A DNA stretch of 64,000 nt from an uncultured Actinomycetes bacterium (GCA_963742735.1 CAVUMN010000004.1:1472001-1536000); one strand, 5' to 3'. Shown: positions 1 to 19,685, numbered from the stretch's first letter. The notes: a model not told the origin generated them from the letters alone. A program made the numbers and translations.

Positions 1-2
1 CC

Positions 3-821
3 AACGTCCTGCTCGACGAGGAGCTGACCAACGCGACCTTCGACGAGGTCAGCGCGGGCAAGGGCAGTCCCTGTGGTTTCTTCACGCCGGGGAACATGAG
101 CATCATCACGGACTGTCCCCTCGGAGACATCGCCCCCGGGGACTCGGTCTCGCTCTTCGTCGAGGCCGCTCCGGACGGGCCGGGCACGATGACCAACACC
201 GCCTCCGTCACCTCCGACACCGCGGACCCGGTCCCGGGGAACAACATCGACACCGCGGTGACGGACGTCGAGGAGGAGATCGACGTCGATCTGACCGGGG
301 CGGCGGCGCGGGACGGCATCCGGGAGGACAAGGAGGACGGCCGCCGGTCGCGCATGGGGATCGCCGGCATCCGCGCGGTCGGCACGCGCTTTGGCGTGCG
401 GGTGACCTGGCAGCAGACGTCGGGCTCCGCGGCGATCGTTCGCTACGCCACCGCGGACTTCCCGACCTCGGTCGACGCCGGCCGGGCCGGCTGCTCCGGC
501 GTGGGAGGCTGCACGATCACCGGTCTCCTTCGGGGGACGACGGTCTACCTGACGGTCTTCGCGCCCGGAGAGCGCTCGGTCACCCCGGTCCGCCGGGTGA
601 ACGCCGCCTCGCTCAAGGTTCGGGTCGAGGCCACCTCGCCCGGAGCCGGCGATCGGAGGACGTCGGGGGCCGGAGGGACGCGCTCGGGCACCGGCGACGA
701 CGCTCCGATCCGGTCCAGGACCGACCGGGATCGCCTCAGGTCCGACGCCCCCCGCGAGCGCACTCGGGACACCTCGGACGGCGGCGGCACGTCCAGATGG
801 AGTGTGAAGCGGGAGCGCTGA
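3..821 (+). CDS. 5'-truncated secreted/surface protein: DUF11 (OmcB-like) Ig domain, small Fn3-like domain and an Arg/Asp/Thr-rich C-terminal tail
   Basis: Frame is open from the window start. DUF11-type motif CPLGDIAPGDSVSLFV...TMTNTASVTSDTADPVPGNN. Ends in the charged tail ...RERTRDTSDGGGTSRWSVKRER. Confidence 0.7.
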   Translation, partial: NVLLDEELTNATFDEVSAGKGSPCGFFTPGNMSIITDCPLGDIAPGDSVSLFVEAAPDGPGTMTNTASVTSDTADPVPGNNIDTAVTDVEEEIDVDLTGAAARDGIREDKEDGRRSRMGIAGIRAVGTRFGVRVTWQQTSGSAAIVRYATADFPTSVDAGRAGCSGVGGCTITGLLRGTTVYLTVFAPGERSVTPVRRVNAASLKVRVEATSPGAGDRRTSGAGGTRSGTGDDAPIRSRTDRDRLRSDAPRERTRDTSDGGGTSRWSVKRER

Positions 822-836
822 GCACAATTGTGTTCA
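819..836. promoter_or_regulatory. 18-bp near-perfect palindrome, putative transcription-factor operator
   Basis: TGAGCACAATTGTGTTCA is self-complementary at 16/18 positions and AT-rich in a GC-rich background. It overlaps the upstream stop codon and lies upstream of the giant surface-protein gene. Confidence 0.5.
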
Positions 837-851
837 AGAGTCCACGCTCAA

Positions 852-867
852 CGTGACAAGGGTCACT
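852..867. promoter_or_regulatory. CRP/GlxR-like cAMP receptor protein binding site
   Basis: CGTGA-CAAGGG-TCACT matches the GTGA-N6-TCAC core of TGTGA-N6-TCACA and lies upstream of the operon containing the adenylate cyclase. Confidence 0.55.
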
Positions 868-970
868 CTGGAAACCTTGTCCCATTCGGCCAGCATCAGG
901 GAGAATAGGGCCGTTCGGGCGCCCCCCAGTCTCGCTGACGGCGCACCGGTACTTCTAGGGAAGCGGGCTG

Positions 971-3900
971 ATGGCGAAGGCTAAGAAGAGTCTGTGGGCC
1001 GTGCTGGTGGCCGTCGTTGCGATCGTCGCGGTCATCGCCGCCTTCCTCGTTTTCGGCGGTACCGAGAAGGCCGCCGCCAAGCAGTTCGCCACGCTGGAGG
1101 TCCTCGATGGCGGCGTCAACGTCAGCAAGGCGGGCGGCGCCTTTCAGGAAGGCGCCGATGGCCAGTCCCTGTCCGCAGGTGACGTCGTCCGAACGAACTC
1201 CGAGGGTCTTGCCGAGCTCGTCTACTTCGACGAGTCACTGACCCGGATCGGCCCCGATACCGAGTTCAAGCTCACCGAGCTCGTGAGCGTCGACAACGCG
1301 ACCGACACGAAGCGGATCAAGGGGTCGCAGGGACGCGGCCGCACCTGGAACCGGGTCACCGAGCTCGCCGACACACAGAGCCGGTTCGAGATCGAGACCC
1401 CGGTCGCCACGGCCGCGGTCAAGGGGACGCTCTTCGCAACCGAGTGCGACTTCTTCGGTGACTGCACCTTCATCGCGATCGAGAACGTCATCGAGGTCTG
1501 TAACGCCCTCGATGAGTGCGTGACGCTCGAGGCGTTCGCGGTCGTGCTCGTGAACGCCGACGGGACATTCGGCGACGTCCAGCCGTTCGACACCCTGGCG
1601 CAGCTGGTTGAGGCCTACCCCTGGATCTCGACAAACGTCTGCGACATCGAGGAGATCCAGGAGTGTGTCGAGCCGCTTCCGCCCGAGGTTGACGTCAACG
1701 AGCCCAACCCGACTCCGCTGCCGCCGCCCGGCAACTCCGGCGAGACTCCCGGCGGCTCGGGCGACACCCCCGGCGGTGAGACGCCCGGCGGCGGCCCCGG
1801 ACCGACGACTCCGCCACCTCCGCCACCCGGACCGCAGCCGAACCACGACCCGATCGCATCCTTCTCCGCCTCGACGTTGACGGGCGGAGCGCCGCTGATC
1901 GTCTCGTTCATCGACACGTCCACCGATCCCGACGGTGACGCGCTCGAGCATTCGTGGTCCTTCGGCGACGGAACGTCCTCGACGCAGACCAACCCGATCC
2001 ACATCTTCAGCCTGGGTACCTGGACCGTGACCGAGACGGTCACCGATCCGTCGGGTGCGTCGGACTCGGCGACGCGGACCGTCACCGCACTCGACCTGAC
2101 GCCTCCCGCCGCGCCGACGATCACCGACGGACCCGATAGTCCGACGAACGAGACCGACGCGACCTTCACCTTCGTCGCCGGCGGCGGGGCCGCCACGACG
2201 GCCGCCGTGTTCACCGCGGTCCTCGCCGCGGCGGACGACACCGTCGGGTTCGAGTGTCGCGTCGCCCCAGCTGCTTTCGGACCATGCGACTCGCCGGCCG
2301 CGTTCGGCGGACTGCCGGCGGGCTCCCGTCTGTTCGAGGTCCGCGCGTTGGACGCCGCGGGGAATCGCTCGGCCCCCACTTCCTTCAACTGGGTGATCGA
2401 CCTGACCGCGCCGACGGCCTCCGTCGACTCCGGTCCCGACGACCCGACGACGTCGCACGATGCGACCTTCGCGGTCTCGTCGAACGACCCCACGGCATCG
2501 CTGACGTGCGTCCTCGATGGCGGCGCGCCCGCGGATTGCTCCGACGGTTCGATCAGCTACTCGGACCTGGACGTCGCCGACCACACCTTCTCCGTCGTCG
2601 CGCAGGACCCAGCGGGCAACACCTCTTCGCCGGCGACCTACAGCTGGACGGTCGTGGCGCCGAATCAGGCGCCGGTCTGTGACAACGACTCCGGCACGAC
2701 CGACGAGGACACTCAGCTGGCCGACTCCGTGTCCTGCTCCGACCCCGACGGCGGCTCGCTGACCTACGCCGAAGGCACCGGGCCTACCAATGGATCCCTG
2801 ACGCTCAACGCCGACGGCACCTTCACCTACGACCCGGACCCGAACTTCAGCGGCTCGGACTCCTTCACGTTCACCGCCTCCGACGGCGCGGCCACCTCGG
2901 GGCCGGCGACCTACTCGATCACCGTTGACCCCGCGAACGACGGGCCCACCTGTGAGAACGACTCCGGCACGACCGCAGAGGACACTCAGCTGGCCGACTC
3001 GGTGGTCTGCACCGACCCCGACGGCGACTCGCTGACCTACGCCGAAGGCACCGGGCCTACCAATGGATCCCTGACGCTCAACGCCGATGGGACCTTCACC
3101 TACGACCCGGACCCGAACTTCAGCGGCTCGGACTCCTTCACGTTCACCGCCTCCGACGGCGAGCTCACCTCTGATGCCGCGACCTACTCGATCACCGTCG
3201 ACTCGGTGAACGACGGGCCCACCTGTGAGAACGACTCCGGCACGACCACGGAGGACACTCAGCTGGCCGACTCGGTGGTCTGCACCGACCCCGACGGCGA
3301 CTCGCTGACCTACGCCGAGGGCACCGGGCCTACCAATGGATCCCTGACGCTCAACGCCGACGGCACCTTCACCTACGACCCGGACCCGAACTTCAGCGGC
3401 TCGGACTCCTTCACGTTCACCGCCTCCGACGGCGCGGCCACCTCGGGGCCGGCGACCTACTCGATCACCGTTGACCCCGCGAACGACGGGCCCACCTGTG
3501 AGAACGACTCCGGCACGACCGCAGAGGACACTCAGCTGGCCGACTCGGTGGTCTGCACCGACCCCGACGGCGACTCGCTGACCTACGCCGAAGGCACCGG
3601 GCCTACCAATGGATCCCTGACGCTCAACGCCGATGGGACCTTCACCTACGACCCGGACCCGAACTTCAGCGGCTCGGACTCCTTCACGTTCACCGCCTCC
3701 GACGGCGAGCTCACCTCTGATGCCGCGACCTACTCGATCACCGTCGACTCGGTGAACGACGGGCCGAGCTGTGAGAACGACTCCGGCACGACCGCAGAGG
3801 ACACCCAGCTGGCCGACTCGGTGGTCTGCACCGACCCCGACGGCGACTCGCTGACCTACGCCGAGGGCACCGGGCCGGCGAACGGATCCCTGACGCTCAA

Positions 3901-6658
3901 CGCCGATGGGACCTTCACCTACGACCCGGACCCGAACTTCAGCGGCTCTGACTCCTTCACGTTCACCGCCTCCGACGGCTCGGCCGCCTCCGACCCGGCT
4001 ACCTACTCGATCACGGTCACCGCCGCGAACGACGGGCCCACCTGTGAGAACGACTCCGGCACGACCGCAGAGGACACTCAGCTGGCCGACTCGGTGGTCT
4101 GCACCGACCCCGACGGCGACTCGCTGACCTACGCCGAAGGCACCGGGCCTACCAATGGATCCCTGACGCTCAACGCCGATGGGACCTTCACCTACGACCC
4201 GGACCCGAACTTCAGCGGCTCGGACTCCTTCACGTTCACCGCCTCCGACGGCGAGCTCACCTCTGATGCCGCGACCTACTCGATCACCGTCGACTCGGTG
4301 AACGACGGGCCCACCTGTGAGAACGACTCCGGCACGACCACGGAGGACACTCAGCTGGCCGACTCGGTGGTCTGCACCGACCCCGACGGCGACTCGCTGA
4401 CCTACGCCGAGGGTACCGGGCCTACCAATGGATCCCTGACGCTCAACGCCGACGGCACCTTCACCTACGACCCGGACCCGAACTTCAGCGGCTCGGACTC
4501 CTTCACGTTCACCGCCAGCGACGGCTCGGCCACCTCCGACCCGGCCACGTACTCGATCACGGTCACCGCCGCGAACGATGGACCCAGCTGCTCGAACGAC
4601 TCAGGCACGACCGACGAGGACACTCAGCTGGCCGACACCGTCGCCTGCTCCGACCCCGACGGCGACTCGCTGACCTACGCCGAGGGCACCGGGCCGGCGA
4701 ACGGGACCCTGGCCTTCAACGCCGACGGCACCTTCACCTACGACCCGGACCCGAACTTCAGCGGCTCGGACTCCTTCACGTTCACCGCCTCCGACGGCGC
4801 GGCCACCTCGGGGCCGGCGACCTACTCGATCACCGTTGACCCCGTGAACGACGCGCCGGTCTGTACGAGCGACTCGGGTTCGACGAATGAGGACACCCAG
4901 CTCACCGACACGGTGGTGTGCACCGACACTGAGGGCGACAGCCTCACGTACGCCGAGGCGAGTGAGGCCTCCAACGGCGAGGTGACCGTCAACGCCGACG
5001 GCACCTTCACCTACGACCCGGACCCGAACTTCAGCGGCTCGGACGCCTTCACGTTCACCGCCTCCGACGGCGCGGCCACGTCGTCCCCGGCCACGTACTC
5101 GATCACGGTCACCGCCGCGAACGATGGACCGAGCTGTGAGAACGACTCCGGCACGACCGGCGAGGACACGCAACTGGCCGACACCGTGGCCTGCACCGAC
5201 CCCGAGGGCGACTCGCTGACCTACGCCGAGGGGACCGGGCCGGCGAACGGATCCCTGACGCTCAACGCCGATGGGACCTTCACCTACGACCCGGACCCGA
5301 ACTTCAGCGGCTCGGACTCCTTCACGTTCACCGCCAGCGACGGCTCGGCCACCTCCGACCCGGCCACGTACTCGATCACGGTCACCGCCGCGAACGATGG
5401 ACCCAGCTGCTCGAACGACTCAGGCACGACCGACGAGGACACTCAGCTGGCCGACACCGTCGCCTGCTCCGACCCCGATGGCGACTCGCTGACCTACGCC
5501 GAGGGCACTGGGCCGGCGAACGGGACCCTGGCCTTCAACTCCGATGGGACCTTCACCTACGACCCGGACCCGAACTTCAGCGGCTCTGACGCCTTCACGT
5601 TCACCGCCTCCGACGGCGAGCTCACCTCTGATGCCGCGACCTACTCGATCACCGTCGACTCGGTGAACGACGGGCCGAGCTGTGAGAACGACTCAGGCAC
5701 GACCGACGAGGACACTCAGCTGGCCGACACCGTCGCCTGCTCCGACCCCGATGGCGACTCGCTGACCTACGCCGAGGGCACCGGGCCGGCGAACGGGACC
5801 CTGGCCTTCAACTCCGATGGGACCTTCACCTACGACCCGGACCCGAACTTCAGCGGCTCTGACTCCTTCACGTTCACCGCCTCCGACGGCTCGGCCGCCT
5901 CCGACCCGGCTACCTACTCGATCACGGTGACGGCCGACGAGGAGGCCACCCTGACGGTGAACAAGAGCGGCACCGGGACCGGCTCGGTCTCCGGTGACGG
6001 GATCACGTGCGGCGGCGACTGCACCGAGACCGCCGAGGTTGGCACCGTCTTCGTGCTGTCCGCCACCGCCGACTCTGGGTCCTCGTTCGACGGCTGGTCG
6101 GGGTGCGACTCCGTCGACGGCAACAGCTGCACGGTGACCCTTGCTTCCGGCGGGACCACGGTGACGGCGAGCTTCCTTGAGGAGACGAACTTCGCGCCGC
6201 AGTGCGAGAACATCGAGGACAGCGTTCGCAACACTCAGCCGAACGTGACGATCCAGGTTGGGAGGGCGTGCTCCGATCCCAACGAGGACGACACGCTTTC
6301 GATCCTGAGCTTCACGGAGCCTGAGAACGGCGATGTCATCGTGCAGGCCGGTGGGAGCATGAACATCAAGTACAACCCGGACGACTGCTTCGTGGGCACG
6401 GACGTGTTCACCGTCACGGTGACCGACGGCGAGCTCTCCACCACGCTGACGGTCTCGATCCAGGTGACGGGCGAGAGTTGTGAAACGGCGAGTACGTCCT
6501 TGGCGATCACGAGCGAGGAGCCCCGACCCCGGCGTTCGTCGGATCCATCGCCCACCCGGAGAGAGCGCACCCGCGAAACGCGGACGACGGACACGACTCG
6601 CGAGCGCGACACGCGCGACCGGACCCGGGAACGCGACGGAACCCACTTCGGGCGGTGA
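971..6658 (+). CDS. Giant membrane-anchored surface protein: N-terminal TM/signal anchor, FecR-like domain, Pro-rich linker, PKD domain, Ig-like domains, 12 tandem cadherin-like/Big_9 (tandem-95) repeats, B-repeat-like domain, charged tail
   Basis: MAKAKK followed by a hydrophobic helix. FecR-type motifs GDVVRT...FDESLTRIGPDTEF...RFEIETPVATAAVKGT. PKD motif DPDGDALEHSWSFGDG. Repeats of EDT...DPDGDSLTY...NGSLTLNADGTFTYDPDPNFSGSDSFTFTASDG. Confidence 0.85.
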   Translation: MAKAKKSLWAVLVAVVAIVAVIAAFLVFGGTEKAAAKQFATLEVLDGGVNVSKAGGAFQEGADGQSLSAGDVVRTNSEGLAELVYFDESLTRIGPDTEFKLTELVSVDNATDTKRIKGSQGRGRTWNRVTELADTQSRFEIETPVATAAVKGTLFATECDFFGDCTFIAIENVIEVCNALDECVTLEAFAVVLVNADGTFGDVQPFDTLAQLVEAYPWISTNVCDIEEIQECVEPLPPEVDVNEPNPTPLPPPGNSGETPGGSGDTPGGETPGGGPGPTTPPPPPPGPQPNHDPIASFSASTLTGGAPLIVSFIDTSTDPDGDALEHSWSFGDGTSSTQTNPIHIFSLGTWTVTETVTDPSGASDSATRTVTALDLTPPAAPTITDGPDSPTNETDATFTFVAGGGAATTAAVFTAVLAAADDTVGFECRVAPAAFGPCDSPAAFGGLPAGSRLFEVRALDAAGNRSAPTSFNWVIDLTAPTASVDSGPDDPTTSHDATFAVSSNDPTASLTCVLDGGAPADCSDGSISYSDLDVADHTFSVVAQDPAGNTSSPATYSWTVVAPNQAPVCDNDSGTTDEDTQLADSVSCSDPDGGSLTYAEGTGPTNGSLTLNADGTFTYDPDPNFSGSDSFTFTASDGAATSGPATYSITVDPANDGPTCENDSGTTAEDTQLADSVVCTDPDGDSLTYAEGTGPTNGSLTLNADGTFTYDPDPNFSGSDSFTFTASDGELTSDAATYSITVDSVNDGPTCENDSGTTTEDTQLADSVVCTDPDGDSLTYAEGTGPTNGSLTLNADGTFTYDPDPNFSGSDSFTFTASDGAATSGPATYSITVDPANDGPTCENDSGTTAEDTQLADSVVCTDPDGDSLTYAEGTGPTNGSLTLNADGTFTYDPDPNFSGSDSFTFTASDGELTSDAATYSITVDSVNDGPSCENDSGTTAEDTQLADSVVCTDPDGDSLTYAEGTGPANGSLTLNADGTFTYDPDPNFSGSDSFTFTASDGSAASDPATYSITVTAANDGPTCENDSGTTAEDTQLADSVVCTDPDGDSLTYAEGTGPTNGSLTLNADGTFTYDPDPNFSGSDSFTFTASDGELTSDAATYSITVDSVNDGPTCENDSGTTTEDTQLADSVVCTDPDGDSLTYAEGTGPTNGSLTLNADGTFTYDPDPNFSGSDSFTFTASDGSATSDPATYSITVTAANDGPSCSNDSGTTDEDTQLADTVACSDPDGDSLTYAEGTGPANGTLAFNADGTFTYDPDPNFSGSDSFTFTASDGAATSGPATYSITVDPVNDAPVCTSDSGSTNEDTQLTDTVVCTDTEGDSLTYAEASEASNGEVTVNADGTFTYDPDPNFSGSDAFTFTASDGAATSSPATYSITVTAANDGPSCENDSGTTGEDTQLADTVACTDPEGDSLTYAEGTGPANGSLTLNADGTFTYDPDPNFSGSDSFTFTASDGSATSDPATYSITVTAANDGPSCSNDSGTTDEDTQLADTVACSDPDGDSLTYAEGTGPANGTLAFNSDGTFTYDPDPNFSGSDAFTFTASDGELTSDAATYSITVDSVNDGPSCENDSGTTDEDTQLADTVACSDPDGDSLTYAEGTGPANGTLAFNSDGTFTYDPDPNFSGSDSFTFTASDGSAASDPATYSITVTADEEATLTVNKSGTGTGSVSGDGITCGGDCTETAEVGTVFVLSATADSGSSFDGWSGCDSVDGNSCTVTLASGGTTVTASFLEETNFAPQCENIEDSVRNTQPNVTIQVGRACSDPNEDDTLSILSFTEPENGDVIVQAGGSMNIKYNPDDCFVGTDVFTVTVTDGELSTTLTVSIQVTGESCETASTSLAITSEEPRPRRSSDPSPTRRERTRETRTTDTTRERDTRDRTRERDGTHFGR
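2663..5938 (+). repeat. 12 intragenic tandem repeats of 273 nt (91 aa)
   Basis: Repeat starts at 2663, 2936, 3209, 3482, 3755, 4028, 4301, 4574, 4847, 5120, 5393 and 5666 (exact 273-nt period). Near-identical DNA, for example cctaccaatggatccctgacgctcaacgcc recurs. Confidence 0.95.
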
Positions 6659-6711
6659 CCCGGGGACTGTGACCCGGCTCGACGCGACGGACCTCGCGTG
6701 AGCACCAGCTC

Positions 6712-8691
6712 ATGAAGCGCTCGCCCCTGTTCCGCATCGCCGTTTCGATCGTGATCGCCGGCCTCGTCACGCTCGGCTCCTGGGCGGGCCTCGACGCCAA
6801 CATCTTCGGCGGCTCGCAGCTGCGCTTCGCGGACGCCCTGTTCCCCGCGACCGACGCCGACACCCGCGTGGTGGTCGTCGGGATCGATGACGCGAGCCAG
6901 ACCGAGCTCGGCCAGTGGCCGTTCCCGCGCCGGGTCCACGCCCGGATCGTCGACAACCTCTCCCGCGCGGGCGCGAACGTCATCGTCTACGACGTCGTGT
7001 TCGACCCGGGCACCCCCAATGACGCCGCGTTCGCGGCCTCGATCAAGGACGCCGGCAACGTCATCCTCGCGGCGGCGGCCGAGTTCCCGCCCGGAAAGCC
7101 CGAGGGCAACCTCCTGGTCGCGGATCAGTTCGTGCCGCCGGTTCCCGAGCTCGCCGAGCCGGCGCTCGCCGTGGCCCACGCCAACGTGACCCCCGACGCC
7201 GACCAGACCGTCCGCGCCATCCCCCTCGTCATCGACGTGGGAGGCGAGCTGGTGCCGTCGCTGTCGCTCCAGGCCCTGATGACCATGGAGGGCCTCGAGG
7301 GGCCCCTGACCCTTCGCAAGGAGGCCCTGCAGGTCGGCGACACGACCATCCCGGTGGGCGAGGGCCAGATCATGGACCTGAACTTCGCCGACGAGCTGAA
7401 GTTCGAGCCGGACCTCTCGGCGGGGCAGGTCTACAACAACGAGTTCGATCCCGAGGCGGTGACCGGCAAGACCATCTTCATCGGGACCACCGACTTCACC
7501 CTGCGCGATACCCGCATCACGCCGATCGGAGAGATCCCCGGGGTGTTCGTCCACGCCAACGCGCTCAACACCATGCTGCGCGGCGCGTTCATCGAGCCGG
7601 CCTCGCTCGGCACGAACCTCCTGGCCGTGTTCGTCCTTGCCTTCGCGATCGCGATCATCGTCCAGTTCCTGCCGATGACCCTGTCGTGGATCGCCGCGGT
7701 GGCCCTGGGCGTCGTCTACATCCTGTTCGTGTTCTCGAGGGCCGACAACGGCACCGTGATGAACTTCGTGTACCCGAACGGCGCCATCGGCTTCGGCTTC
7801 GTCGCGTCCCTCGGCGTGAAGTACTTCACCGAGGTCCGAGAGCGCCGGCGCGTAACCCAGACGTTCGGGCGGTACCTGTCCAAGGACGTGGTCGCGGAGG
7901 TCCTGTCCGCCCCCGAGGGGGCGGTCGCCACGCTGAAGGGAGCCATGCGTCCGCTCTCGGTCCTGTTCGCCGACCTCCGCGGGTTCACGGCCGCCTCCGA
8001 GAACGCCCTGCCGGGGGACGTCGTCACCGCACTCAACATCTACCTGGACGCCATGACCCGTGCCGTGGTCGAGGAGAAGGGGACCATCGACAAGTTCATG
8101 GGTGACTGCGTGATGGCGTTCTGGGGCGCGCCGAAGCCCGACGCCGACTACGTGAACCGCGCGGTCCGCGCCGGCATGCGGATGCTCGACTACATCGACG
8201 AGGCCGTGGCGACGCGCGAGGAGATCCAGCTGCTGAAGGTCAAGGGGTGCGGCGTGGGGATCTCCGCGGGGATGGCCGTGGTCGGCAACATCGGCTCGCA
8301 CGAGCGCCTGGACTACACGGCCATCGGCGACACCGTGAACACCGCCAGCCGGCTGTGCGGAGTGGCCGGCGCCGGCGAGGTCGTGGTGACCGAGGACGCC
8401 GCCGCGTTCCTGGACGAGGCGACCTTCCGGATGGCCGCGCTCCCGCCCCTGCTGGTGAAGGGCAAGGTCGAGCCGCTGCACGTCTTCCAGGTCCTGCGCG
8501 AGGGCCAGGAGGCGAAGGTGTTCGCCGAGGGCGAGACCATCGACACCGCCGAGGAGAAGGGCCATTTCGAGCCGGACCTCAAGGCCGTTCCCGAGCCCCC
8601 GAAGGCCGCCGGCTACGCACCCGTGGAGCCCGCCTCCACGAAGCCGGACGGCGCCGTGATCAGCCCCCAGGAGAAGGAACCGGCCGAGTAA
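6712..8691 (+). CDS. CHASE2-domain class III adenylate cyclase
   Basis: CHASE2 motifs VVVVGIDDAS..ELGQWPFPRRVHA and PGVFVHANAL, then three TM helices. Cyclase motifs VLFADLRGFT, IDKFMGDCVMAFWG (Lys indicates ATP specificity) and YTAIGDTVNTASRL (Thr, class IIIb-like). Confidence 0.93.
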   Translation: MKRSPLFRIAVSIVIAGLVTLGSWAGLDANIFGGSQLRFADALFPATDADTRVVVVGIDDASQTELGQWPFPRRVHARIVDNLSRAGANVIVYDVVFDPGTPNDAAFAASIKDAGNVILAAAAEFPPGKPEGNLLVADQFVPPVPELAEPALAVAHANVTPDADQTVRAIPLVIDVGGELVPSLSLQALMTMEGLEGPLTLRKEALQVGDTTIPVGEGQIMDLNFADELKFEPDLSAGQVYNNEFDPEAVTGKTIFIGTTDFTLRDTRITPIGEIPGVFVHANALNTMLRGAFIEPASLGTNLLAVFVLAFAIAIIVQFLPMTLSWIAAVALGVVYILFVFSRADNGTVMNFVYPNGAIGFGFVASLGVKYFTEVRERRRVTQTFGRYLSKDVVAEVLSAPEGAVATLKGAMRPLSVLFADLRGFTAASENALPGDVVTALNIYLDAMTRAVVEEKGTIDKFMGDCVMAFWGAPKPDADYVNRAVRAGMRMLDYIDEAVATREEIQLLKVKGCGVGISAGMAVVGNIGSHERLDYTAIGDTVNTASRLCGVAGAGEVVVTEDAAAFLDEATFRMAALPPLLVKGKVEPLHVFQVLREGQEAKVFAEGETIDTAEEKGHFEPDLKAVPEPPKAAGYAPVEPASTKPDGAVISPQEKEPAE

Positions 8692-8734
8692 ACTTCCGCG
8701 GTACAGGCCTTCCCCCCGACCAGAGACGAGGCCC

Positions 8735-9598
8735 ATGGCCGAGGCACGCACCATCGACGCGGACAGGGAGGCGCAGGTCGAGCGCCTCAAGGACGTCGCC
8801 CGCGAGCTGCGCGTCACCGACATCGAGATGCTCACCGAGGCCGGCTCGGGCCACCCCGGCGGAACCCTCTCCGCGGCCGACCTGGTCGCGGCCCTCTACT
8901 TCTACAAGCTGCGCCTGCGGCCGGAGGAGCCGGCCTGGCCCGACCGGGACCGGTTCATCCTGTCGAAGGGCCACTGCATCCCGATCGTCTACGCGGCCAT
9001 GGCCAAGCTCGGGTTCTTCGAGGAGAAGCTCCTGATGACCCTGCGCAAGCTGGGCTCGCCTCTGCAGGGCCACCCCGACCGGACCCGCCTGCCGGGGATC
9101 GAGGCCTCGACGGGCTCGCTCGGGCAGGGCCTGTCCGTGGCGGTGGGGATGGCGATCGCGGCCAAGCTCGACAAGGCCAGCTGGCGCGTCTACTGCATGC
9201 TCGGCGACGGCGAGGTCCAGGGCGGCCCGGTGTGGGAGGCGTCGATGCTCGCGGGCTACCGCAAGCTCGACAACCTGTGCGGGATCCTGGACGCCAACCA
9301 GGTCCAGCAGACCGGCAAGGTCACGGATCGGCTGGACATCGAGCCGACCGTCGCCAAGTGGCGCGCGTTCAACTGGCACGTTCGCGAGATCGACGGGCAC
9401 GACATGGCCGAGATCGTCGACGCGCTCGACGAGGCCGAGGTCGTGGCCGACCGGCCGACGATGATCGTGGCCCGGACCGTGAAGGGGAAGGGCGTGTCCT
9501 GGATGGAGCTCAACTCGAGCTGGCACGGCAAGGCCCCGAACCCCGAGGAAGCCAAGAAGGCCATCGCCGAGCTCCGTGGCGAGGCAGGTGAGGCCTGA
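8735..9598 (+). CDS. Transketolase, N-terminal (TPP-binding) subunit
   Basis: Motifs SGHPGG, DRDRFILSKGH, STGSLGQG and GDGE..G.VWEA. Confidence 0.92.
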   Translation: MAEARTIDADREAQVERLKDVARELRVTDIEMLTEAGSGHPGGTLSAADLVAALYFYKLRLRPEEPAWPDRDRFILSKGHCIPIVYAAMAKLGFFEEKLLMTLRKLGSPLQGHPDRTRLPGIEASTGSLGQGLSVAVGMAIAAKLDKASWRVYCMLGDGEVQGGPVWEASMLAGYRKLDNLCGILDANQVQQTGKVTDRLDIEPTVAKWRAFNWHVREIDGHDMAEIVDALDEAEVVADRPTMIVARTVKGKGVSWMELNSSWHGKAPNPEEAKKAIAELRGEAGEA

Positions 9599-10545
9599 TG
9601 GCCGGCGGCGGCAGCGGCGCCACCCGCGACGCGTGGGGCCAGGCCATCGCCCGCGTCGGCGCCGACGAGCGGATGGTCGTGCTGGCGGGCGACCTGCGCG
9701 ACTCCACCAAGGTGGAGGGGTTCATCGAGAAGTATCCCGAGCGCTACGTGGAGTGCGGCATCGCCGAGATGAACATGATCGGGGTCGCCTCGGGCCTGGC
9801 CCTGTCCGGGAAGGTCCCGTGGGCCTGCTCGTTCTCCGCGTTCGTGACCGGACGCATGGAGATCATCCGGGTGAGCGTGTCCTACCAGGAGGCGAACGTC
9901 CGCCTGGTCGGCACCCACTGCGGCGTCGGGGTGGGGGAGGACGGCTACTCGCAGATGGCGCTGCAGGACATCGCCGAGATCCGCTCGCTGCCGAACGTGG
10001 CCATCGTCCAGCCCGCCGACGCCGTCGAGACCGAACGGGCCGTCGAGTACCTGGCCGAGCACCAGGGGCCGGCGTTCCTGCGCCTGACCCGCCAGAAGGT
10101 CGACGACGTCCACGACGACGGCTACACGTTCGCCTTCGGCCGGGCCGACCGGCTCCGCGACGGGGACGACGTGGCGCTGATCGGCACGGGGGCGACCGTC
10201 GGGGAGTGCATGAAGGCCGCCGAGGTCCTGGAGGGCCGGGGCATCTCCGCGCGCGTGGTCAACATCCACACGATCAAGCCGCTCGACGAGGAGGCCATCC
10301 TGGACACGGCCTCGGCGTGCTCGGCGATCGTCACGGTCGAGGACCACGGCATCTGGGGCGGCCTGGGTGGCGCGGTGGCCGAGGTCCTGGCGGCGGCGCC
10401 CGAGAACGGCTCGCGGGCGCGGCTGCACATCATCGGTGTGCGCGGCTTCGGCGAGTCCGGCACGTCCGAGGAGCTCTACGAGCTGCACGGCCTGTCCGGC
10501 GCCCGCGTCGCCGACCAGACCGAGGCGTTCCTGAAGGGCATCTGA
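9598..10545 (+). CDS. Transketolase, C-terminal subunit
   Basis: Motifs GIAEMNMIGVASGLA, GEDGYSQ, IKPLD and VTVEDH..GGLG. Translationally coupled (TGATG). Gln stands where GxDGxSH/TH usually has His. Confidence 0.9.
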   Translation: MAGGGSGATRDAWGQAIARVGADERMVVLAGDLRDSTKVEGFIEKYPERYVECGIAEMNMIGVASGLALSGKVPWACSFSAFVTGRMEIIRVSVSYQEANVRLVGTHCGVGVGEDGYSQMALQDIAEIRSLPNVAIVQPADAVETERAVEYLAEHQGPAFLRLTRQKVDDVHDDGYTFAFGRADRLRDGDDVALIGTGATVGECMKAAEVLEGRGISARVVNIHTIKPLDEEAILDTASACSAIVTVEDHGIWGGLGGAVAEVLAAAPENGSRARLHIIGVRGFGESGTSEELYELHGLSGARVADQTEAFLKGI

Positions 10546-10551
10546 CCGCCT

Positions 10552-10567
10552 TGTGAGGTCGGTCACA
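10552..10567. promoter_or_regulatory. Perfect CRP consensus site upstream of the cNMP-effector operon
   Basis: TGTGA-GGTCGG-TCACA. A candidate -10 CATACT at 10606-10611 puts the site centre about 60 bp upstream of the likely start site, a class I-like activation position. Confidence 0.75.
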
Positions 10568-10621
10568 CTCGGGGCCTGGTCTAGTTTCGGGAGGGTCGAA
10601 GCGCGCATACTTCGCAAGGTG

Positions 10622-12874
10622 ATGCCCCGCGCTCCACGATCCTCCACCCCTCGACGCACGAAGATCTCCGCGATCGTCGAGGTACTCGGTCGCGCCGGGC
10701 CGTTCAAGGACCTCGGCCGGCGTGACCTGGCGGCCCTCGCCGAACGCCTCGAGCCTGTCGGGCTGGCCGCGGGCGAGACGCTGCTGTCCCAGGACGGAGC
10801 CGGGGACGACGTCTTCGTCGTCCTCGCCGGTTCGCTCGCCGTCCTCGCGGCCGACGGGAACGGCACCGCCCGGGTGGCGGAGGTGGGACCCGGTGACGTC
10901 GTCGGGGAGAACGCGGTGCTGACCGGCGAGCGCCGGGCCGCCACCGTCCGCGCGAACGGGCGTGCCCGGGTGGGCAGGCTGTCCCGGGAGGCGTTCGGAG
11001 AGATCCTGTCCGCGCATCCCCGGGTGGCCGAGCGCATGGCCAAGGAGATGGACCGGCGAACCATCGATCGTCTGCTGGCGACCGACCTCGCCCGGCTGTT
11101 CGGTCCCCTGGACCCGGAGGTCCGAGAGCAGCTGCGCTCCCGGCTCGAGTGGCGCCACCTGGCCGCCGGCGACGTCCTGTTCTCCGAGGGCGAGCCGGCC
11201 GACTCGGCGTACTTCGTGGTGCTCGGGCGCCTGCGCGCCCGGGCGAGCCCCTCGGCCAACGGCTCGGCCGAGGCGTGGACGGACGTCCCGGCGGGGGAGC
11301 TGGTTGGGGCAGCCGCCCTGCTCGACGGCGGCGTGCGGGCCCGAACGGTGGCCGCGGTCCGGGACTCCTACCTGGTGAAGCTCCCGGCCGACGTCCTCGC
11401 GCTGCTGTCGAAGGACCACCCCGAGGCGATCCTCGGCGTGGCCCGCAGCCTGGTCCGTCAGATCACCCAGCCGCCCGTCCGCGGCGGCGCGGGCCGGCGG
11501 TGCTCGGTGGTGCTCATCCCGGCCGCGCTCGACGTCGACCTCCGCATGTTCGCCTCGCGGCTGGCCGAGATGCTGTCCGAGGACGGTCCGACCTTCCACC
11601 TGTGGGGCGCGCGGGTCGACAGCGCGCTGGGGACGCCCGGGGTGTCCCAGTCGAAGGCCGGGGACCCGGGCGACGTGCGGGTCAGCCGATGGCTGGACAC
11701 CGTGGAAGAGGCGAATCGGTTCCTGGTGTTCGAGGCCGACGGCGAGGACTCGGCCTGGACCCGGCGGGCCCTGCGCCAGGCCGACCACGTCCTGATCCTG
11801 GCGGACGCCACGGCCGAGCCGGTCGCGCCCGGGGCCGCGGTCGCCGAGCTGATCCAGGCGGGCGGCACGCCGGTCTCCCTGGTGCTGCTCCAGCGCGGCG
11901 GCCCCCACCTGCCCACCGGCACGGACCGGTGGCTGGACGCGATGGGCGTCGACGACGTCATCCACCTCCGGCGGGGCTCACCCCACGACCTGCAGCGGCT
12001 GGGGCGCGTGGTGTCGGGGCGGGCGGTGGCCATGGTCTTCAGCGGAGGGGGCGCGCGAGGGTTCGCCCACCTCGGCGTCATTCGGGCCATGCACGGGCTG
12101 GGGGTTCCCATCGACATCGTGGGGGGGTCCTCGATGGGTGCGGCGGTCGCCACCGGCCTGGGGATGGGCGTCTCCATCGAGGACATGATCCCGATGGTCA
12201 AGAAGCGCTTCGCGCGGCTGCGCGACTACACCCTTCCGGTCGCCTCATTCCTGAAGGGGAAGCGCATCACCCAGGCCATGCAGGCGGAGTTCGGCGAGCA
12301 CCTCATCGAGGACCTGTGGCTGCCGTTCTTCTGCATCACGACGAACATGACGACGTTCGGCGAGGCCGTGCATCGCCGAGGCCCGCTGGTGCAGATCCTG
12401 CGTGCGTCCACGGCCCTGCCCGGCGTCCTGCCTCCCGCGTCGATCGGCGGCGAGGTTCACATCGACGGGGGAGTCATCAACGATTTCCCGATCGACGTGA
12501 TGCGCCGGCTGCATCCGAACTCGATCGTGATCGGCTCCGACGTGACCCCCAAGCGCGGGCCCGGCGCCAAGGACGACTACGGGCTGTGGCTGTCGGGGAT
12601 GCGGGCGATCGGCAAGAGGGTCGGCAGGCACCAGAGGATCCCCGGCATCGGCGACACGCTGATGCGGTCCATGACCGTGAGCGCCATGCGCCAGCGCGAC
12701 CGGGCGATCGAGGAACATCACGCCGACCTGGTGCTGCACCACGACATGCGCGGCGTGAGCCTGCTGGACTTCGACGCCGTCGAGGCCGTGGCCGAGCGCG
12801 GCTACCAGTCCGCCCTCCCGCAGCTGACGGCGTGGTTCGAGCAGCGGGACATCGCGACGAAGGGAGCGAGCTGA
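10622..12874 (+). CDS. NTE-family patatin-like phospholipase with two cyclic-nucleotide-binding domains
   Basis: Two cNMP domains (GDVVGENAVL..RRAATV; GELVGAAALL..RARTV). Patatin motifs SGGGARG, GSSMG and DGG. Start placed at ATG 10622 (GTG 10619 also possible). Confidence 0.88.
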   Translation: MPRAPRSSTPRRTKISAIVEVLGRAGPFKDLGRRDLAALAERLEPVGLAAGETLLSQDGAGDDVFVVLAGSLAVLAADGNGTARVAEVGPGDVVGENAVLTGERRAATVRANGRARVGRLSREAFGEILSAHPRVAERMAKEMDRRTIDRLLATDLARLFGPLDPEVREQLRSRLEWRHLAAGDVLFSEGEPADSAYFVVLGRLRARASPSANGSAEAWTDVPAGELVGAAALLDGGVRARTVAAVRDSYLVKLPADVLALLSKDHPEAILGVARSLVRQITQPPVRGGAGRRCSVVLIPAALDVDLRMFASRLAEMLSEDGPTFHLWGARVDSALGTPGVSQSKAGDPGDVRVSRWLDTVEEANRFLVFEADGEDSAWTRRALRQADHVLILADATAEPVAPGAAVAELIQAGGTPVSLVLLQRGGPHLPTGTDRWLDAMGVDDVIHLRRGSPHDLQRLGRVVSGRAVAMVFSGGGARGFAHLGVIRAMHGLGVPIDIVGGSSMGAAVATGLGMGVSIEDMIPMVKKRFARLRDYTLPVASFLKGKRITQAMQAEFGEHLIEDLWLPFFCITTNMTTFGEAVHRRGPLVQILRASTALPGVLPPASIGGEVHIDGGVINDFPIDVMRRLHPNSIVIGSDVTPKRGPGAKDDYGLWLSGMRAIGKRVGRHQRIPGIGDTLMRSMTVSAMRQRDRAIEEHHADLVLHHDMRGVSLLDFDAVEAVAERGYQSALPQLTAWFEQRDIATKGAS

Positions 12875-13920
12875 TGCTGTTGGTCACCCTGAGGGACCTT
12901 CAGTACCGCAAGGTCCGGTTCCTGCTGGTGACGCTGGGGACCGGGCTGGTGTTCGTGCTGCTGCTGTTGATGAGCGGGCTCACCGCGCAGTTCCGCCGCG
13001 AGCCGCTGGCCACCGTCGAGGCGATCGGGGCCGACGGCTGGGTCCTGCGAGCCGGCGCGACCGGGGCGTTCACCTCTGCGGCCACGCTGGAGCCTGGGAT
13101 CGCCGCGGGGATCCAGGGTGCGACGCGCGCGGATCCCCTGGTCATCGCGCGGCACAGCCTGGACGTGGACGGCGCGCCCATGGACATCGTGGTGATCGGC
13201 TACGTGCCGGGCGGGCTTGGGGTGCCGACGGTGATCGAGGGGCGCCTGCCGGCGTCGAGCGGCGAGGTCACGATCGACGAGTCCTCCGGCGTCGCGGTGG
13301 GTGATCCCGCCAAGGTCGGCTCGCAGACGTTCACCGTGGCGGGGCTGACCACCGACACGACGTTGCTGGGCGGCATGCCCCTGCTGTTCATGGAGCTCGA
13401 GGACGCCCAGGCGCTGGTCTACCGGGGGCGCCCCGCCGCGAGCGCCATCGTCGTGGAGGGCACGCCGACCTCGGTCCCGGAGGGGTACGCGCTGCTGTCG
13501 AACGAGGCGGTCGCCGAGGACGCCACCCGTCCGCTGGATCGCGCCATCTCCTCGGTCAGCCTGGTGCGAAGCCTGCTGTGGGTCGTGTCCGCGATGATCA
13601 TCGGCGGGGTCGTGTACCTCTCGGCGCTGGAGCGCCGGCGGGACTTCGCGGTCATGAAGGCCGTCGGCACGTCGACCGCGGCGCTGCTGTTCGGGCTCGC
13701 GCTCCAGGGGGTGCTCGTGGCGATCCTGGCGGCGATCCTGGCCACGGGCCTGCAGGCGGTCCTGGTCCCCATCTTCCCGCTGAAGGTGACGGTGACGACG
13801 TCGGTGCTCACCCAGCTGCCGGTCGTGGCGGTGTTGATCGCGATCCTTGCCAGCCTCGGCGGAATGCGCCAGGTGGCGCGGACCGATCCCGCGTCGGCGT
13901 TCGGGGGGCCGGCGTCATGA
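12874..13920 (+). CDS. ABC transporter permease (FtsX/MacB-like)
   Basis: MLLVTLRDLQYRKVRF..., one N-terminal TM, an extracytoplasmic domain, ERRRDFAVMKAVG, and three C-terminal TMs. Coupled start. Confidence 0.85.
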   Translation: MLLVTLRDLQYRKVRFLLVTLGTGLVFVLLLLMSGLTAQFRREPLATVEAIGADGWVLRAGATGAFTSAATLEPGIAAGIQGATRADPLVIARHSLDVDGAPMDIVVIGYVPGGLGVPTVIEGRLPASSGEVTIDESSGVAVGDPAKVGSQTFTVAGLTTDTTLLGGMPLLFMELEDAQALVYRGRPAASAIVVEGTPTSVPEGYALLSNEAVAEDATRPLDRAISSVSLVRSLLWVVSAMIIGGVVYLSALERRRDFAVMKAVGTSTAALLFGLALQGVLVAILAAILATGLQAVLVPIFPLKVTVTTSVLTQLPVVAVLIAILASLGGMRQVARTDPASAFGGPAS

Positions 13921-15020
13921 CCCCGACCAAGCTCTCCGTTCGGGACCTGGTCGTCGAGTACCAGACCGAGAACTACAAGGTGCGACCCATCGAGGGTCTG
14001 AGCTTCGAGGCGTCCGAGGGCGAGATCGTCGTTCTGCTCGGTCCCTCGGGCTCCGGGAAGACCACGCTGCTGTCCTGTCTGGCGGGGATCCTGACCCCGA
14101 CGTGGGGGTGGATCGAGGTCGGCGACACGGTGGTCACCGAGCTCGCCGCGGGGAAGATGGCCGAGTACCGGCGGCGGCAGGTCGGGATCATCTTCCAGGC
14201 GTTCAACCTGATCGCCTCGCTGTCCGCCCGGGAGAACGTGGCGATGCCGCTCATGGTGGGCTCGGGGATCTTCAAGAACGAGGTCCCCAAATCCGAGGCC
14301 CTGAAGCGCGCCGACGAGCTCCTGGCGCTGGTGAACCTGGCCGACCGCGCCCATCACCGTCCCGGACAGCTCTCGGGAGGGCAGCAGCAGCGGGTGGCGA
14401 TCGCCCGCGCGCTGATCTACGACCCCCCGATGCTGCTGGCCGACGAGCCGACGGCGAACCTGGACTACATCCAGGCGGAGGGGATCGTTCGCGCCCTCCG
14501 TGACCTGAAGGCGAAGGGCCGGATCATCGTGATCGCCACCCACGACGAGCGCCTGGTGCCGATCGCGGACCGCGTCGTGCAGCTGGTGCCGGACGTGCAC
14601 GGCGAGAGCGGACCTCCCCAGCGCGTGGAGTACGCCGCCGGCGAGACGATCTTCCAGCAGGGCTCGCGGGGCCAGCTGATCTACGTGATCGAGGGGGGCC
14701 GGGTCGATCTGGTTCGCGACCTGGCGGACGGGGGCGAGGAACCGCTGGCGCTGCTCGACGCCGGCCAGTACTTCGGCGAGCTCGGCCCGTTCCTGGGGAT
14801 GCCCAGGGCGGCGACGGCGCGGGCCAAGACCGACGTGGTCCTCACCGCCTACGGCGTGCAGGACTTCCGCCGCAAGCTGGGCGAGCTCAAGGCGGGGCAG
14901 GACGGCAACGGAACCCGGATCAAGAGGAAGCGCCCCGCCAAGAAGACGGCGGCGAAGAGGTCCGCCGGGAAGAAGCCGGCCGCCAAGAAGGCCGCCGCGA
15001 GGGTTCGTTCCCGTTCCTGA
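13917..15020 (+). CDS. ABC transporter ATP-binding protein with C-terminal cNMP-binding domain and Lys/Ala-rich tail
   Basis: Walker A GPSGSGKTT, LSGGQQQR and LLADEPT, then cNMP domain GQYFGELG..PRAATARA. Tail KKTAAKRSAGKKPAAKK. Confidence 0.9.
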   Translation: MTPTKLSVRDLVVEYQTENYKVRPIEGLSFEASEGEIVVLLGPSGSGKTTLLSCLAGILTPTWGWIEVGDTVVTELAAGKMAEYRRRQVGIIFQAFNLIASLSARENVAMPLMVGSGIFKNEVPKSEALKRADELLALVNLADRAHHRPGQLSGGQQQRVAIARALIYDPPMLLADEPTANLDYIQAEGIVRALRDLKAKGRIIVIATHDERLVPIADRVVQLVPDVHGESGPPQRVEYAAGETIFQQGSRGQLIYVIEGGRVDLVRDLADGGEEPLALLDAGQYFGELGPFLGMPRAATARAKTDVVLTAYGVQDFRRKLGELKAGQDGNGTRIKRKRPAKKTAAKRSAGKKPAAKKAAARVRSRS

Positions 15021-15078
15021 GTTCCTCTGCTAGCATCGGGCGACCCACCCACCTACTTCCTGGGGATGAGGCGCGTCC

Positions 15079-15765
15079 ATGATCCGTTGCGACCACGTAA
15101 CCAAGACCTACAAGGATTCCGTTGTTGCCCTCGAGGATGTGTCGCTCGAGGTCGGCAAGGGCGAGTTCGTGTTCCTGGTCGGCCCGTCGGGCTCGGGCAA
15201 GAGCACGTTCCTGCGGCTGTGCCTGAAGGAGGAGGAGCCCAGCAAGGGCGCCATCTTCGTGGCCGGCAAGAACATCCGCACGCTGTCGACCTGGAAGGTG
15301 CCCTACCTGCGGCGAAACATCGGCACCGTGTTCCAGGACTTCAAGCTGCTCCCCGACAAGACGGTCTTCGACAACGTGGCGTTCGCGCTGGAGGTCATCG
15401 GCAAGCCCAAGCACACCATCGACACGCGCGTGCCGGAGATCCTGGAGCTGGTCGGGCTGGGGGACAAGCTGTCGAACTTCCCGGACGAGCTGTCCGGCGG
15501 CGAGCAGCAGCGGGTTTCCATCGCCCGGGCATTCGTGAACCGGCCGCTCATCCTGCTGGCCGACGAGCCGACGGGAAACCTCGACCCCGCCACGTCGGTG
15601 GACATCATGAAGCTGCTCGACCGCATCAACCGCACGGGCACCACCGTGATCATGGCTACGCACGACAACGCGATCGTGGACGCCATGCGCCGCCGGGTGA
15701 TCGAGCTCGAGGGCGGCCACGTCATCCGCGACCAGGCCCGAGGGGTGTACGGCTATGGCGCGTAG
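15079..15765 (+). CDS. ftsE: Cell division ATP-binding protein FtsE
   Basis: Motifs [27 protein letters not shown] and LSGGEQQR. Ends with the typical RGVYGY and lies upstream of ftsX. Confidence 0.95.
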
Positions 15766-16633
15766 GTTCAGCTACTTCTTCCGCGAGACCGCGACCGGGC
15801 TGAAGCGCAACGGGCTCATCGCCTTCGCAGCGGTGTCCTCGGTGTTCGTGTCGCTGTTCCTGCTCGGCGCGGCCCTGCTGGTAGGGCGCCAGGTCGGCAT
15901 CATCGTCGACTACTCGACCGCCAAGGTCGAGGTCTCGGTGTTCCTGAAGGACTCCATCACCGAGCCCCAGCGACTGCACCTGCAGGAGACGCTCGTCGCG
16001 ATCCCCGAGGTCGACACCGTCGAGTACGAGTCGCGCGAGGAGGCCTACGAGCGGTTCAAGGAGATCTTCGCCAACCAGCCCAACCTGGTGCAGAACGTCC
16101 CGCCGGACGCGATGCCCATGTCCTACAGGGTGAAGCTCGCCGACCCCGAGAAGTTCGACGTGATCGCCGCGCGCCTCGCCGGCCAGCCGGGCATCGACAA
16201 GGTCGTGGACCAGCGCGAGATCCTCAAGCGGCTGTTCGCGGTGACGAACGTGCTGCAGGTCGGGGCGTTCGCGGCGGCGGTGATCATGCTGGTGTCGGCG
16301 GCCGCGCTGATCGGCAACACCGTGCGTATGGCGGTGTTCGCTCGGCGCAAGGAGATCGGCATCATGAAGCTCGTCGGCGCGACGAACTGGTTCATCCGCG
16401 TGCCGTTCCTGATCGAGGGCGTGGTCCAGGGTCTGTTCGGCGCGGCGGCGGCCATCGTGTCGCTGTTCGCGATCAAGGCCCTGTTCATCGACCCGCTGCG
16501 CAACAAGATCGGGTTCATGCCGCTGGTCCAGACCCAGGACGTGGTGTTCGCGGTGCCGTTCCTGCTGCTGGCCGGCGTGCTCGTAGCGGTGATCGCCAGC
16601 CTGCTCGCCATGCGCCGCTTCCTCGAGGTCTGA
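15755..16633 (+). CDS. ftsX: Cell division permease FtsX
   Basis: Motif [35 protein letters not shown]. Confidence 0.95.
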
Positions 16634-16640
16634 GTCGCTC

Positions 16641-16713
16641 GGAGGTCACGCGCCGCATCGCTTCCCTCGCTCGCTGCGCTCGCTCAGTCCAGATGATGCG
16701 TCGCATGACCCCC
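16641..16713. repeat. 73-bp intergenic inverted-repeat (REP/MITE-like) element flanked by TCGCTC direct repeats
   Basis: Arms GGAGGTCACGCGCCGCATC (16641-59) and GATGCGTCGCATGACCCCC (16695-713) are complementary at 16/19 positions. TCGCTC occurs at 16635-40 and 16714-19. The loop contains CTCGCTCGCTGCGCTCGCTC. Confidence 0.55.
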
Positions 16714-16731
16714 TCGCTCTGCAGAGGGTGC

Positions 16732-16760
16732 TTGAATCGCCCCCTTTGCGTTCCTAGGCT
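16732..16760 (+). promoter_or_regulatory. Sigma70/SigA-type promoter of the M23 peptidase gene
   Basis: TTGAAT-N17-TAGGCT, ending 9 nt before the ATG at 16770 (near-leaderless). Confidence 0.6.
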
Positions 16761-16769
16761 TGTGTACCC

Positions 16770-17966: not shown

Positions 17967-18047
17967 CCGGTGCCACCCTCGGGGGAGGACGGGTCGTTCT
18001 TCTGGGCGTCCGGTAGCATCGTGGTCCCCCCCGATCGCGAGGCAGGC

Positions 18048-19678: not shown

Positions 19679-19685
19679 TACTGGC

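Follow-up and report, generated by a model that had tools for sequence, protein, structure and literature searches.

We analysed a 64,000-nucleotide (nt) stretch of DNA (the window, G000:C4:1472001-1536000) from an uncultured soil actinobacterium, in which a giant FecR-domain protein (FecR3), a class III adenylate cyclase with a CHASE2 domain and an operon for a patatin lipase, a permease and an ATP-binding cassette (ABC) ATPase follow one another on a single strand, the operon carrying three cyclic-nucleotide-monophosphate (cNMP)-binding domains. The reading that we favour, with moderate confidence, is that these genes make up two separate modules, a conserved FecR-CHASE2 sensory pair (module A) and a later-acquired cyclic AMP (cAMP) effector cassette (module B), which stand side by side in a housekeeping gene cluster. 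The assembly measures 3.08 Mb, has about 70% G+C and is 88.9% complete; genes and domains were called with Pfam, with scores in bits judged against the cut-off of each family (FecR, 24; CHASE2, 26.3). For comparison we used 40 genomes of the same order, together with a 400-genome sample of the phylum; G014, G027, G031 and G039 are unpublished genomes.

The original prediction had described the region as a self-contained cAMP circuit, and its parts were all present where it had placed them: the FecR protein, the CHASE2 cyclase 53 nt downstream (counted from the FecR3 stop at 6658), the three coupled cNMP genes and a CRP-type box before each operon (Table 1). Beyond these, we observed two further FecR giants upstream, a split transketolase and, across the whole 3.08 Mb, 42 Guanylate_cyc domains that pass the cut-off as well as 16 cNMP-binding domains, a cAMP network that is unusually dense for a genome of this size.

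The gene order into which both modules are set, secA-prfB-tktN-tktC-ftsE-ftsX, is complete in the loci of six relatives (G008, G014, G019, G027, G031 and G035) and partial in two more, G039 from tktN on and the same-genus genome G001 as tktC-ftsE-ftsX-M23-S41, with M23 and/or S41 peptidase genes after this backbone where the relatives' contigs reach. In the window genome, prfB and tktN flank the FecR-cyclase block (~17.4 kb), and tktC and ftsE flank the effector cassette. At the nucleotide level, homology with G001 (83%) ends at 10546 and restarts at 15002, so that the perfect CRP box is the first element within the inserted segment; in G001 the tktC-ftsE spacer (L142:938-1745) holds instead ~725 nt with a small minus-strand open reading frame (ORF) that has a lipoprotein-like N-terminus. 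The same spacer measures ~1.7 kb in G031 (L149:7582-9260), and this site, variable as it is, may be prone to insertion. The FecR-cyclase block shares its prfB-side position with G012 and its tkt-side position with G004, indicating that this insertion is older or recurrent. Modules A and B are thus separate insertions in a conserved backbone, the effector cassette being a recent arrival, and we reject a single co-inherited island because both the insertion sites and the distributions of the two modules differ.

Effector genes were found downstream of the cyclase in none of the four relatives in which at least 16 kb could be read downstream (three further contigs end early), and the patatin had no match at E<=1e-30 in the 40 same-order genomes. 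Across the phylum sample, patatin occurred in 13 of 400 genomes (E<=1e-40; best identity 47%), its 14 loci including three with the permease and cNMP-ATPase adjacent, two with a cyclase domain within ~5 kb (one of them weak) and none with CHASE2 or FecR beside it. CHASE2 and patatin were found together in two of the 400 genomes (G151 and G158) against ~0.9 expected, with G151 carrying them on separate contigs. A related-locus search with the single patatin protein as query gave no match.

These results bear directly on the circuit first proposed, in which the FecR stalk would sense contact or a ligand and the cyclase's local cAMP would drive the adjoining operon through CRP and the three cNMP domains. 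Such a dedicated circuit draws support from a patatin that starts 1.9 kb past the cyclase stop, on the same strand and with terminator-like sites no more frequent than chance, from CRP-like boxes before FecR1, FecR3 and the patatin, the last being one of the three perfect boxes in the genome, and from canonical cNMP motifs; in Sinorhizobium meliloti, the cAMP regulator Clr has a FecR-domain gene among its targets (PMC5498481). Against it stand the two insertions, the missing linkage in relatives just described, the near-absence of the boxes before orthologous genes (see below) and the abundance of other potential cAMP sources and receivers in the same cell. Proximity itself is weak evidence of wiring in so cyclase-dense a genome, since three of 14 cNMP genes had a cyclase within 3 kb where random placement gave a mean of 1.08 (P = 0.11). 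We regard the dedicated circuit as unlikely; the claim of self-containment is not supported, and the cyclase-effector linkage is not seen in relatives.

Module A, by comparison with its relatives, is a conserved pair. Full-length cyclase orthologues (53-57% identity) were present in seven of the 40 same-order genomes, and a FecR gene, confirmed by Pfam, lies directly upstream on the same strand at five of these seven loci (G012, G014, G023 with three in tandem, G027 and G031). At G004 the contig ends within an upstream PKD/Big_13 giant, one more probable case of an adjacent FecR, and G019 has no adjoining FecR gene, yet encodes FecR elsewhere in its genome. All seven same-order genomes with the cyclase encode FecR; among the 33 that lack the cyclase, FecR is found in three, in two of them at the cut-off.

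The partnership extends well beyond the order. A profile built from eight cyclase orthologues retrieved 80 loci, the nearest from records titled as Actinomycetota metagenome-assembled genomes and the rest from many phyla; 12 were excluded for want of usable upstream sequence or a cyclase ORF call, and 117 same-strand upstream ORFs of the remaining 68 loci were scanned by Pfam, with some short or distant second ORFs excluded. FecR stood upstream in 19 of the 68: two Actinomycetota, nine Patescibacteria (candidate phyla radiation, CPR), three Bacillota and five diderms, the latter comprising three Ignavibacteria/Bacteroidota, one Desulfobacterota-type and one Burkholderiales locus. Within the phylum sample, CHASE2 was over cut-off in 28 of 400 genomes, and 20 loci were examined, with two genomes that are unpublished, additional copies, fragmentary genes and matches below threshold set aside. 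FecR was directly upstream in seven, four of these with two tandem copies; of the others, one had a convergent FecR-TPR gene, one was too short and 11 were without FecR. All seven paired loci are among the CHASE2 proteins nearest to that of the window (at least 37% identity over the CHASE2 part). These data support a conserved FecR-CHASE2 cyclase pair that is also present in lineages lacking an outer membrane, in agreement with what had been proposed for this locus from the diderm cases.

Other arrangements were also observed around CHASE2 cyclases. In 23 of the 68 wider loci, mainly from Acidobacteriota and Burkholderiales (for example L069, L073 and L079), an FHA gene, mostly accompanied by PP2C, precedes the cyclase in place of FecR, often with a second CHASE2 gene nearby. 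At L059, L063, L085, L118, L131 and L132 the FecR gene or the cyclase is immediately preceded by GAF-HD (phosphodiesterase-like) genes, and at L063 a small cNMP-binding protein directly precedes the cyclase. One distant CHASE2 cyclase of the phylum sample (L188 in G261; 30% identity over the CHASE2 part) has a tktN-tktC-ftsE-ftsX cluster 4.6 kb away, to which it is divergently oriented, the ORFs between the two having no Pfam match.

FecR partners of CHASE2 receptors have been published for diderms (PMC5192318, PMC9239204 and PMC7529298). Among the listed titles and abstract openings of our literature search, no FecR-CHASE2 pair in Actinomycetota or other monoderms was found. The new aspect of this pair is that the FecR head is anchored in the membrane, bears giant stalks that can be exchanged and is present three times, in a cell lacking an outer membrane. 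A search of the genome (88.9% complete) gave no Omp85, which fits a cell of this kind.

A whole-genome scan showed that the sole FecR genes of the genome are the three tandem paralogues, all located in the cyclase cluster, with FecR scores of 27.9 bits for FecR3 and 40.0 and 39.5 bits for the other two. At the N-terminus of FecR3, a brief basic segment and a single hydrophobic helix (amino acids 8-29) are followed directly by the FecR domain, placing FecR next to the membrane with the repeats pointing outward; the stalk adds 13 repeats, bearing out the earlier description of a membrane-anchored partner with a long repeat stalk. With its N-terminal membrane anchor and no match to a beta-barrel family, this partner is not of the outer-membrane or periplasmic type of the described diderm cases, and no LPXTG/sortase motif was seen at the FecR3 C-terminus. 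In an alignment of these partners the anchor and FecR head match well throughout, and the distal parts differ, being built from Big_9/cadherin, DUF11, CarboxypepD_reg, TSP3 or PKD domains. The tails of FecR3 (6500-6655) and FecR2 (700-818) are strongly charged and rich in Arg, Thr, Asp and Glu, which is odd for extracellular proteins, and that of FecR1 is a Pro/Thr/Glu repeat.

Long arrays of Ig-like repeats are typical of adhesins, and the giants could be ordinary adhesins or surface-layer proteins whose position has no signalling meaning, with CHASE2 sensing alone. A weak match of the N-terminal region to the surface-adhesin family Lsa33 (41 bits, cut-off 420), the G019 orthologue that has no adjoining FecR and the 11 of 20 phylum loci without FecR all point in this direction. 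We nevertheless consider it highly unlikely, given that same-strand adjacency recurs across phyla, that FecR presence follows the cyclase so closely among the same-order genomes, and that anchor and head are conserved where stalks have been swapped; moreover, signal perception by CyaK in S. meliloti requires NsrA (PMC7529298).

The cyclase is the genome's only CHASE2 gene. Its CHASE2 domain spans amino acids 25-313 and is bounded on both sides by hydrophobic helices seen in the sequence, and its closest matches in the PDB are adenylate cyclases. Residues D421, K461, D465, T536, N543 and R547 were invariant across 21 sequences, positions to which we assign the usual class III roles, presumably two metal-binding Asp, the substrate-binding Lys and Thr/Asp, and the transition-state Asn and Arg. 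The catalytic positions are intact and do not vary among the orthologues, and the enzyme is predicted to be competent. After the catalytic domain comes a C-terminal tail (window 8500-8690) with the motifs EEKGHFE and KAAGYAPVEP, whose key positions are invariant in eight of eight same-order orthologues.

Both gene junctions of the effector operon are ATGA overlaps that couple the three genes. The patatin contains the GSSMG and DGG motifs of a catalytic Ser-Asp dyad, and its first cNMP domain has a PKA-like phosphate-binding motif, the second being degenerate; a GTG at 10553 is a less likely patatin start than 10622 because it falls inside the CRP box. In the ATPase, the Walker and signature motifs are intact and the cNMP motif FGEL...RAAT is canonical; the chain ends in a basic, Lys/Ala-rich tail of ~35 residues (window 14920-15017). 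The patatin architecture is widespread (200 proteins at E<=1e-20), and nine of the 120 homologues listed (P0020, P0021, P0023, P0026, P0031, P0035, P0042, P0046 and P0072) are fusions of ~1110 amino acids that join an FtsX permease to cNMP, NTE_Ploop and patatin domains, which speaks for lipase and transporter acting as a single machine. Together with the three of 14 phylum loci in which its neighbours recur, this identifies the permease/cNMP-ATPase/cNMP-patatin trio as a recurring module, as had been proposed.

We next considered the CRP boxes, scored over the ten fixed positions of the palindrome TGTGA-N6-TCACA. Markov simulations gave 0 to 0.4 perfect boxes where the 3.08-Mb genome has three, all of them intergenic. 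At a threshold of at least 8/10 there are 205 boxes in the genome (0.067 per kb), four of which fall in the 25-kb cluster: before FecR1 (9/10), before FecR3 (8/10), inside the cyclase gene (8/10) and before the patatin (10/10). The upstream regions of FecR1 and FecR3 are duplicates, with box, promoter-like pair and leader motif in common; FecR2 has the hexamers and no box. The leader motif TCGGGCGCCCCCC...TCGCTGA is found in the leaders of FecR1 (L001:9372-9446) and FecR3 (window 907-970), and since Rfam gave no match in window positions 1-20000 at E up to 0.1, it is not a known RNA family. A scan for sigma-70-type consensus promoters returned none, and three terminator-like sites were no more than expected by chance. 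In relatives, a box of at least 8/10 within 350 nt upstream was seen at one FecR locus (L054) and at two of 14 patatin loci; the boxes are mostly not conserved before orthologous genes, and the expectation of conservation raised by the original prediction was not borne out.

It could be that the boxes are not cAMP-CRP sites at all, being chance palindromes or operators of some other regulator, for example one of two further Crp/Fnr paralogues, as three Crp/Fnr-type genes are present in the genome. The FecR1 and FecR3 boxes are imperfect and stem from one duplicated promoter, and the promoters read by eye would put their centres ~54-56 nt from the guessed transcription start sites, at non-classical distances; their rarity in relatives points the same way. 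One other perfect palindrome (G000:C4:200563-200578; L141:2063-2078) occupies the 60 nt that separate a TetR gene from its divergent neighbour, which has a methyltransferase domain, and could be the operator of that TetR repressor. This alternative is possible but doubtful overall, because perfect boxes exceed the simulated number and are all intergenic, because the operon behind the perfect box in the window encodes three cNMP domains, and because the genome encodes a close orthologue of actinobacterial CRP (L134:1489-2178, 229 amino acids), which scores 195 bits to the CRP/FNR-family PDB chains 4byy, 3d0s and 3i54. We take these chains to be GlxR and the CRP of M. tuberculosis. We conclude that a genuine CRP-family site is very probable at 10552 and plausible before FecR1 and FecR3.

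Several observations weigh against the reading of two separate modules. The seven cyclase-bearing relatives are not independent, five of them coming from one family, and the FecR-CHASE2 partnership is drawn from synteny and co-occurrence; the FecR score of FecR3, the window's own partner protein, is modest at 27.9 bits. G001, 61% complete and with a contig that begins within tktC, is uninformative on module A. In G158, the closest patatin (47% identity) coexists with a close CHASE2 cyclase, the two being on two short contigs. Two insertions 1.9 kb apart in one housekeeping cluster are also unexpected by chance, and the intergenic stretches before FecR1, FecR3 and the patatin total ~358 nt, for which the genome-wide rate predicts ~0.02 boxes where three are seen at promoter positions. 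This closeness and these boxes leave room for selected co-localisation and co-regulation.

Taking two separate modules as our working model, we propose how each might operate. The domains, the gene order, the co-occurrence and the insertion boundaries are observations; the protein contacts, the signal, the lipid function and binding by CRP are part of the model. By analogy with NsrA/CyaK, the FecR head of module A would contact the CHASE2 ectodomain, and the repeat stalk would bind a ligand or a surface; input at the stalk would then set cAMP synthesis, with three sensors that differ in their stalks converging on one cyclase. Module B would have arrived with its own perfect CRP site and would pair a cytoplasmic lipase with a type VII (FtsX/MacB-type) ABC transporter, the lipase and permease probably forming one complex that processes or exports a membrane lipid under cAMP gating. 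On this scheme module B would respond to cAMP at three points, namely by way of CRP, at the lipase and at the ATPase. The cellular cAMP/CRP state is probably read by both modules. Their adjacency is lineage-specific, and nothing marks module A as the dedicated cAMP source of module B. A bolder version, in which a CHASE2 cyclase served by three FecR antennae with unlike stalks, in a cell lacking an outer membrane, has in this lineage captured a CRP-controlled, cAMP-gated lipase/ABC cassette as its local output, to give a contact-to-cAMP-to-membrane-lipid circuit with feedback on two of the sensors, appears to us rather improbable.

Table 1 Features of the FecR-CHASE2 and effector region. Positions are those of the window unless a locus is named.
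Feature	Position	Strand	Remarks
FecR1 (1882 aa)	L001:9447-15095	same strand	outside window; FecR, PKD, Big_9
Box before FecR1	L001:9315-9330		paralogous to the FecR3 box; 9/10 positions
FecR2, 3' end	1..821	+	whole gene L001:15177-18821, 1214 aa; membrane anchor, FecR, 5 DUF11 repeats
CRP-like box cGTGAcaagggTCACt	852..867	.	8/10 consensus positions; 105 nt before FecR3 start
Putative promoter TTGTCC-N18-GAGAAT	877..906	+	common to the three FecR genes; read by eye from alignment, inferred
FecR3 (1895 aa)	971..6658	+	anchor, FecR, Pro-rich linker, PKD, 13 Big_9/cadherin-like repeats, charged tail
CHASE2 class III adenylate cyclase (659 aa)	6712..8691	+	CHASE2 167.5 bits, Guanylate_cyc 78.4 bits
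Split transketolase	8735..10545	+	tktN 8735-9598, tktC 9598-10545; backbone genes, in neither module
Inserted effector segment	10547..15001	+	includes the CRP box; absent from same-genus G001
Perfect CRP box TGTGAggtcggTCACA	10552..10567	.	10/10; starts 7 nt past tktC stop, left edge of insert
NTE-like patatin lipase (750 aa)	10622..12874	+	two cNMP domains, NTE_Ploop, patatin
FtsX/MacB-type permease (348 aa)	12874..13920	+	start overlaps patatin stop (ATGA)
FtsE/LolD/MacB-type ABC ATPase	13917..15020	+	C-terminal cNMP domain (FGEL...RAAT), Lys/Ala-rich tail
ftsE and ftsX	15079..16633	+	ftsE 15079-15765, ftsX 15755-16633; backbone, directly after tktC in relatives

Further features were noted around the two modules. 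After ftsEX, window positions 16770-19196 encode an S41/PDZ protease and, ahead of it, an M23 peptidase that contains a PcsB-type coiled coil, the usual FtsEX-hydrolase neighbourhood. A raiA RNA motif (L001:1684-1894, plus strand; Rfam RF03072, 132.9 bits against a gathering score of 101.3) is located ~17.3 kb upstream of the window, and its 3' end overlaps the listed start (1862) of the ORF of a LuxR-type response regulator.

The one case of CHASE2 sensing that we found in the literature searched works through a FecR-type envelope partner. The occurrence of the same partnership in Actinomycetota, Patescibacteria and Bacillota, with a cytoplasmic-membrane anchor, a constant FecR head and a swapped outer stalk, suggests the testable idea that the FecR head serves as an adaptor for CHASE2, with the stalk deciding what is sensed. 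The locus also shows a dated insertion, in which a cassette of lipase and type VII ABC transporter, predicted to be cAMP-gated, arrived together with its own CRP site.

Among known systems, NsrA/CyaK of S. meliloti, in which NsrA carries a FecR domain, offers a first parallel. There too, an envelope protein is encoded beside a CHASE2 cyclase (CyaK, with CyaD1 and CyaD2), is needed for signal perception and leads to cAMP that acts through a CRP-family regulator (PMC7529298; PMC13001267). NsrA differs in being a diderm outer-membrane beta-barrel, whereas the proteins described here are anchored by an N-terminal helix in the cytoplasmic membrane, carry long stalks, occur in three copies and belong to a genome in which no Omp85 was found. 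In the 'BiofilmReg' operon of Burkholderia, an extracytoplasmic FecR-domain protein (LysM-FecR) likewise stands beside a CHASE2 receptor (PMC5192318); its output, however, is a histidine kinase and not a cyclase, and the partner is small and has LysM. A cAMP cluster of Campylobacterota also groups a CHASE2 cyclase with a FecR-domain outer-membrane protein, along with a phosphodiesterase and a TPR protein (PMC9239204). GAF-HD and TPR neighbours were also present at some of the wider CHASE2 loci, but the Campylobacterota cluster belongs to a diderm and has an outer-membrane partner, and the cluster in the window is without a phosphodiesterase or TPR gene.

For the effector cassette, we compared Rv2563-Rv2565 of M. 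tuberculosis, which we take to be a permease, an ABC ATPase and a patatin. The likeness, one of description and not of sequence, is the combination of a permease with a cNMP-ABC ATPase and a cNMP-patatin, and cNMP domains are listed for Rv2564 and Rv2565 (PMC4886424); the window differs in its gene order, patatin-permease-ATPase, and in the two cNMP domains of its patatin. The architecture of NTE/PNPLA6, with cNMP-like, NTE_Ploop and patatin domains in one chain, is also comparable, and the source records of some patatin homologues call them 'NTE family protein/lysophospholipid hydrolase', although the window protein is bacterial, soluble and encoded with an ABC transporter. Finally, in YbbAP-TesA an FtsX/MacB-type (type VII) ABC transporter works with a lipid hydrolase (PMC12646458). 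TesA is periplasmic, whereas the patatin of the window lacks a signal peptide and its cNMP domains are cytoplasmic, and here both patatin and ATPase bear cyclic-nucleotide sensors.

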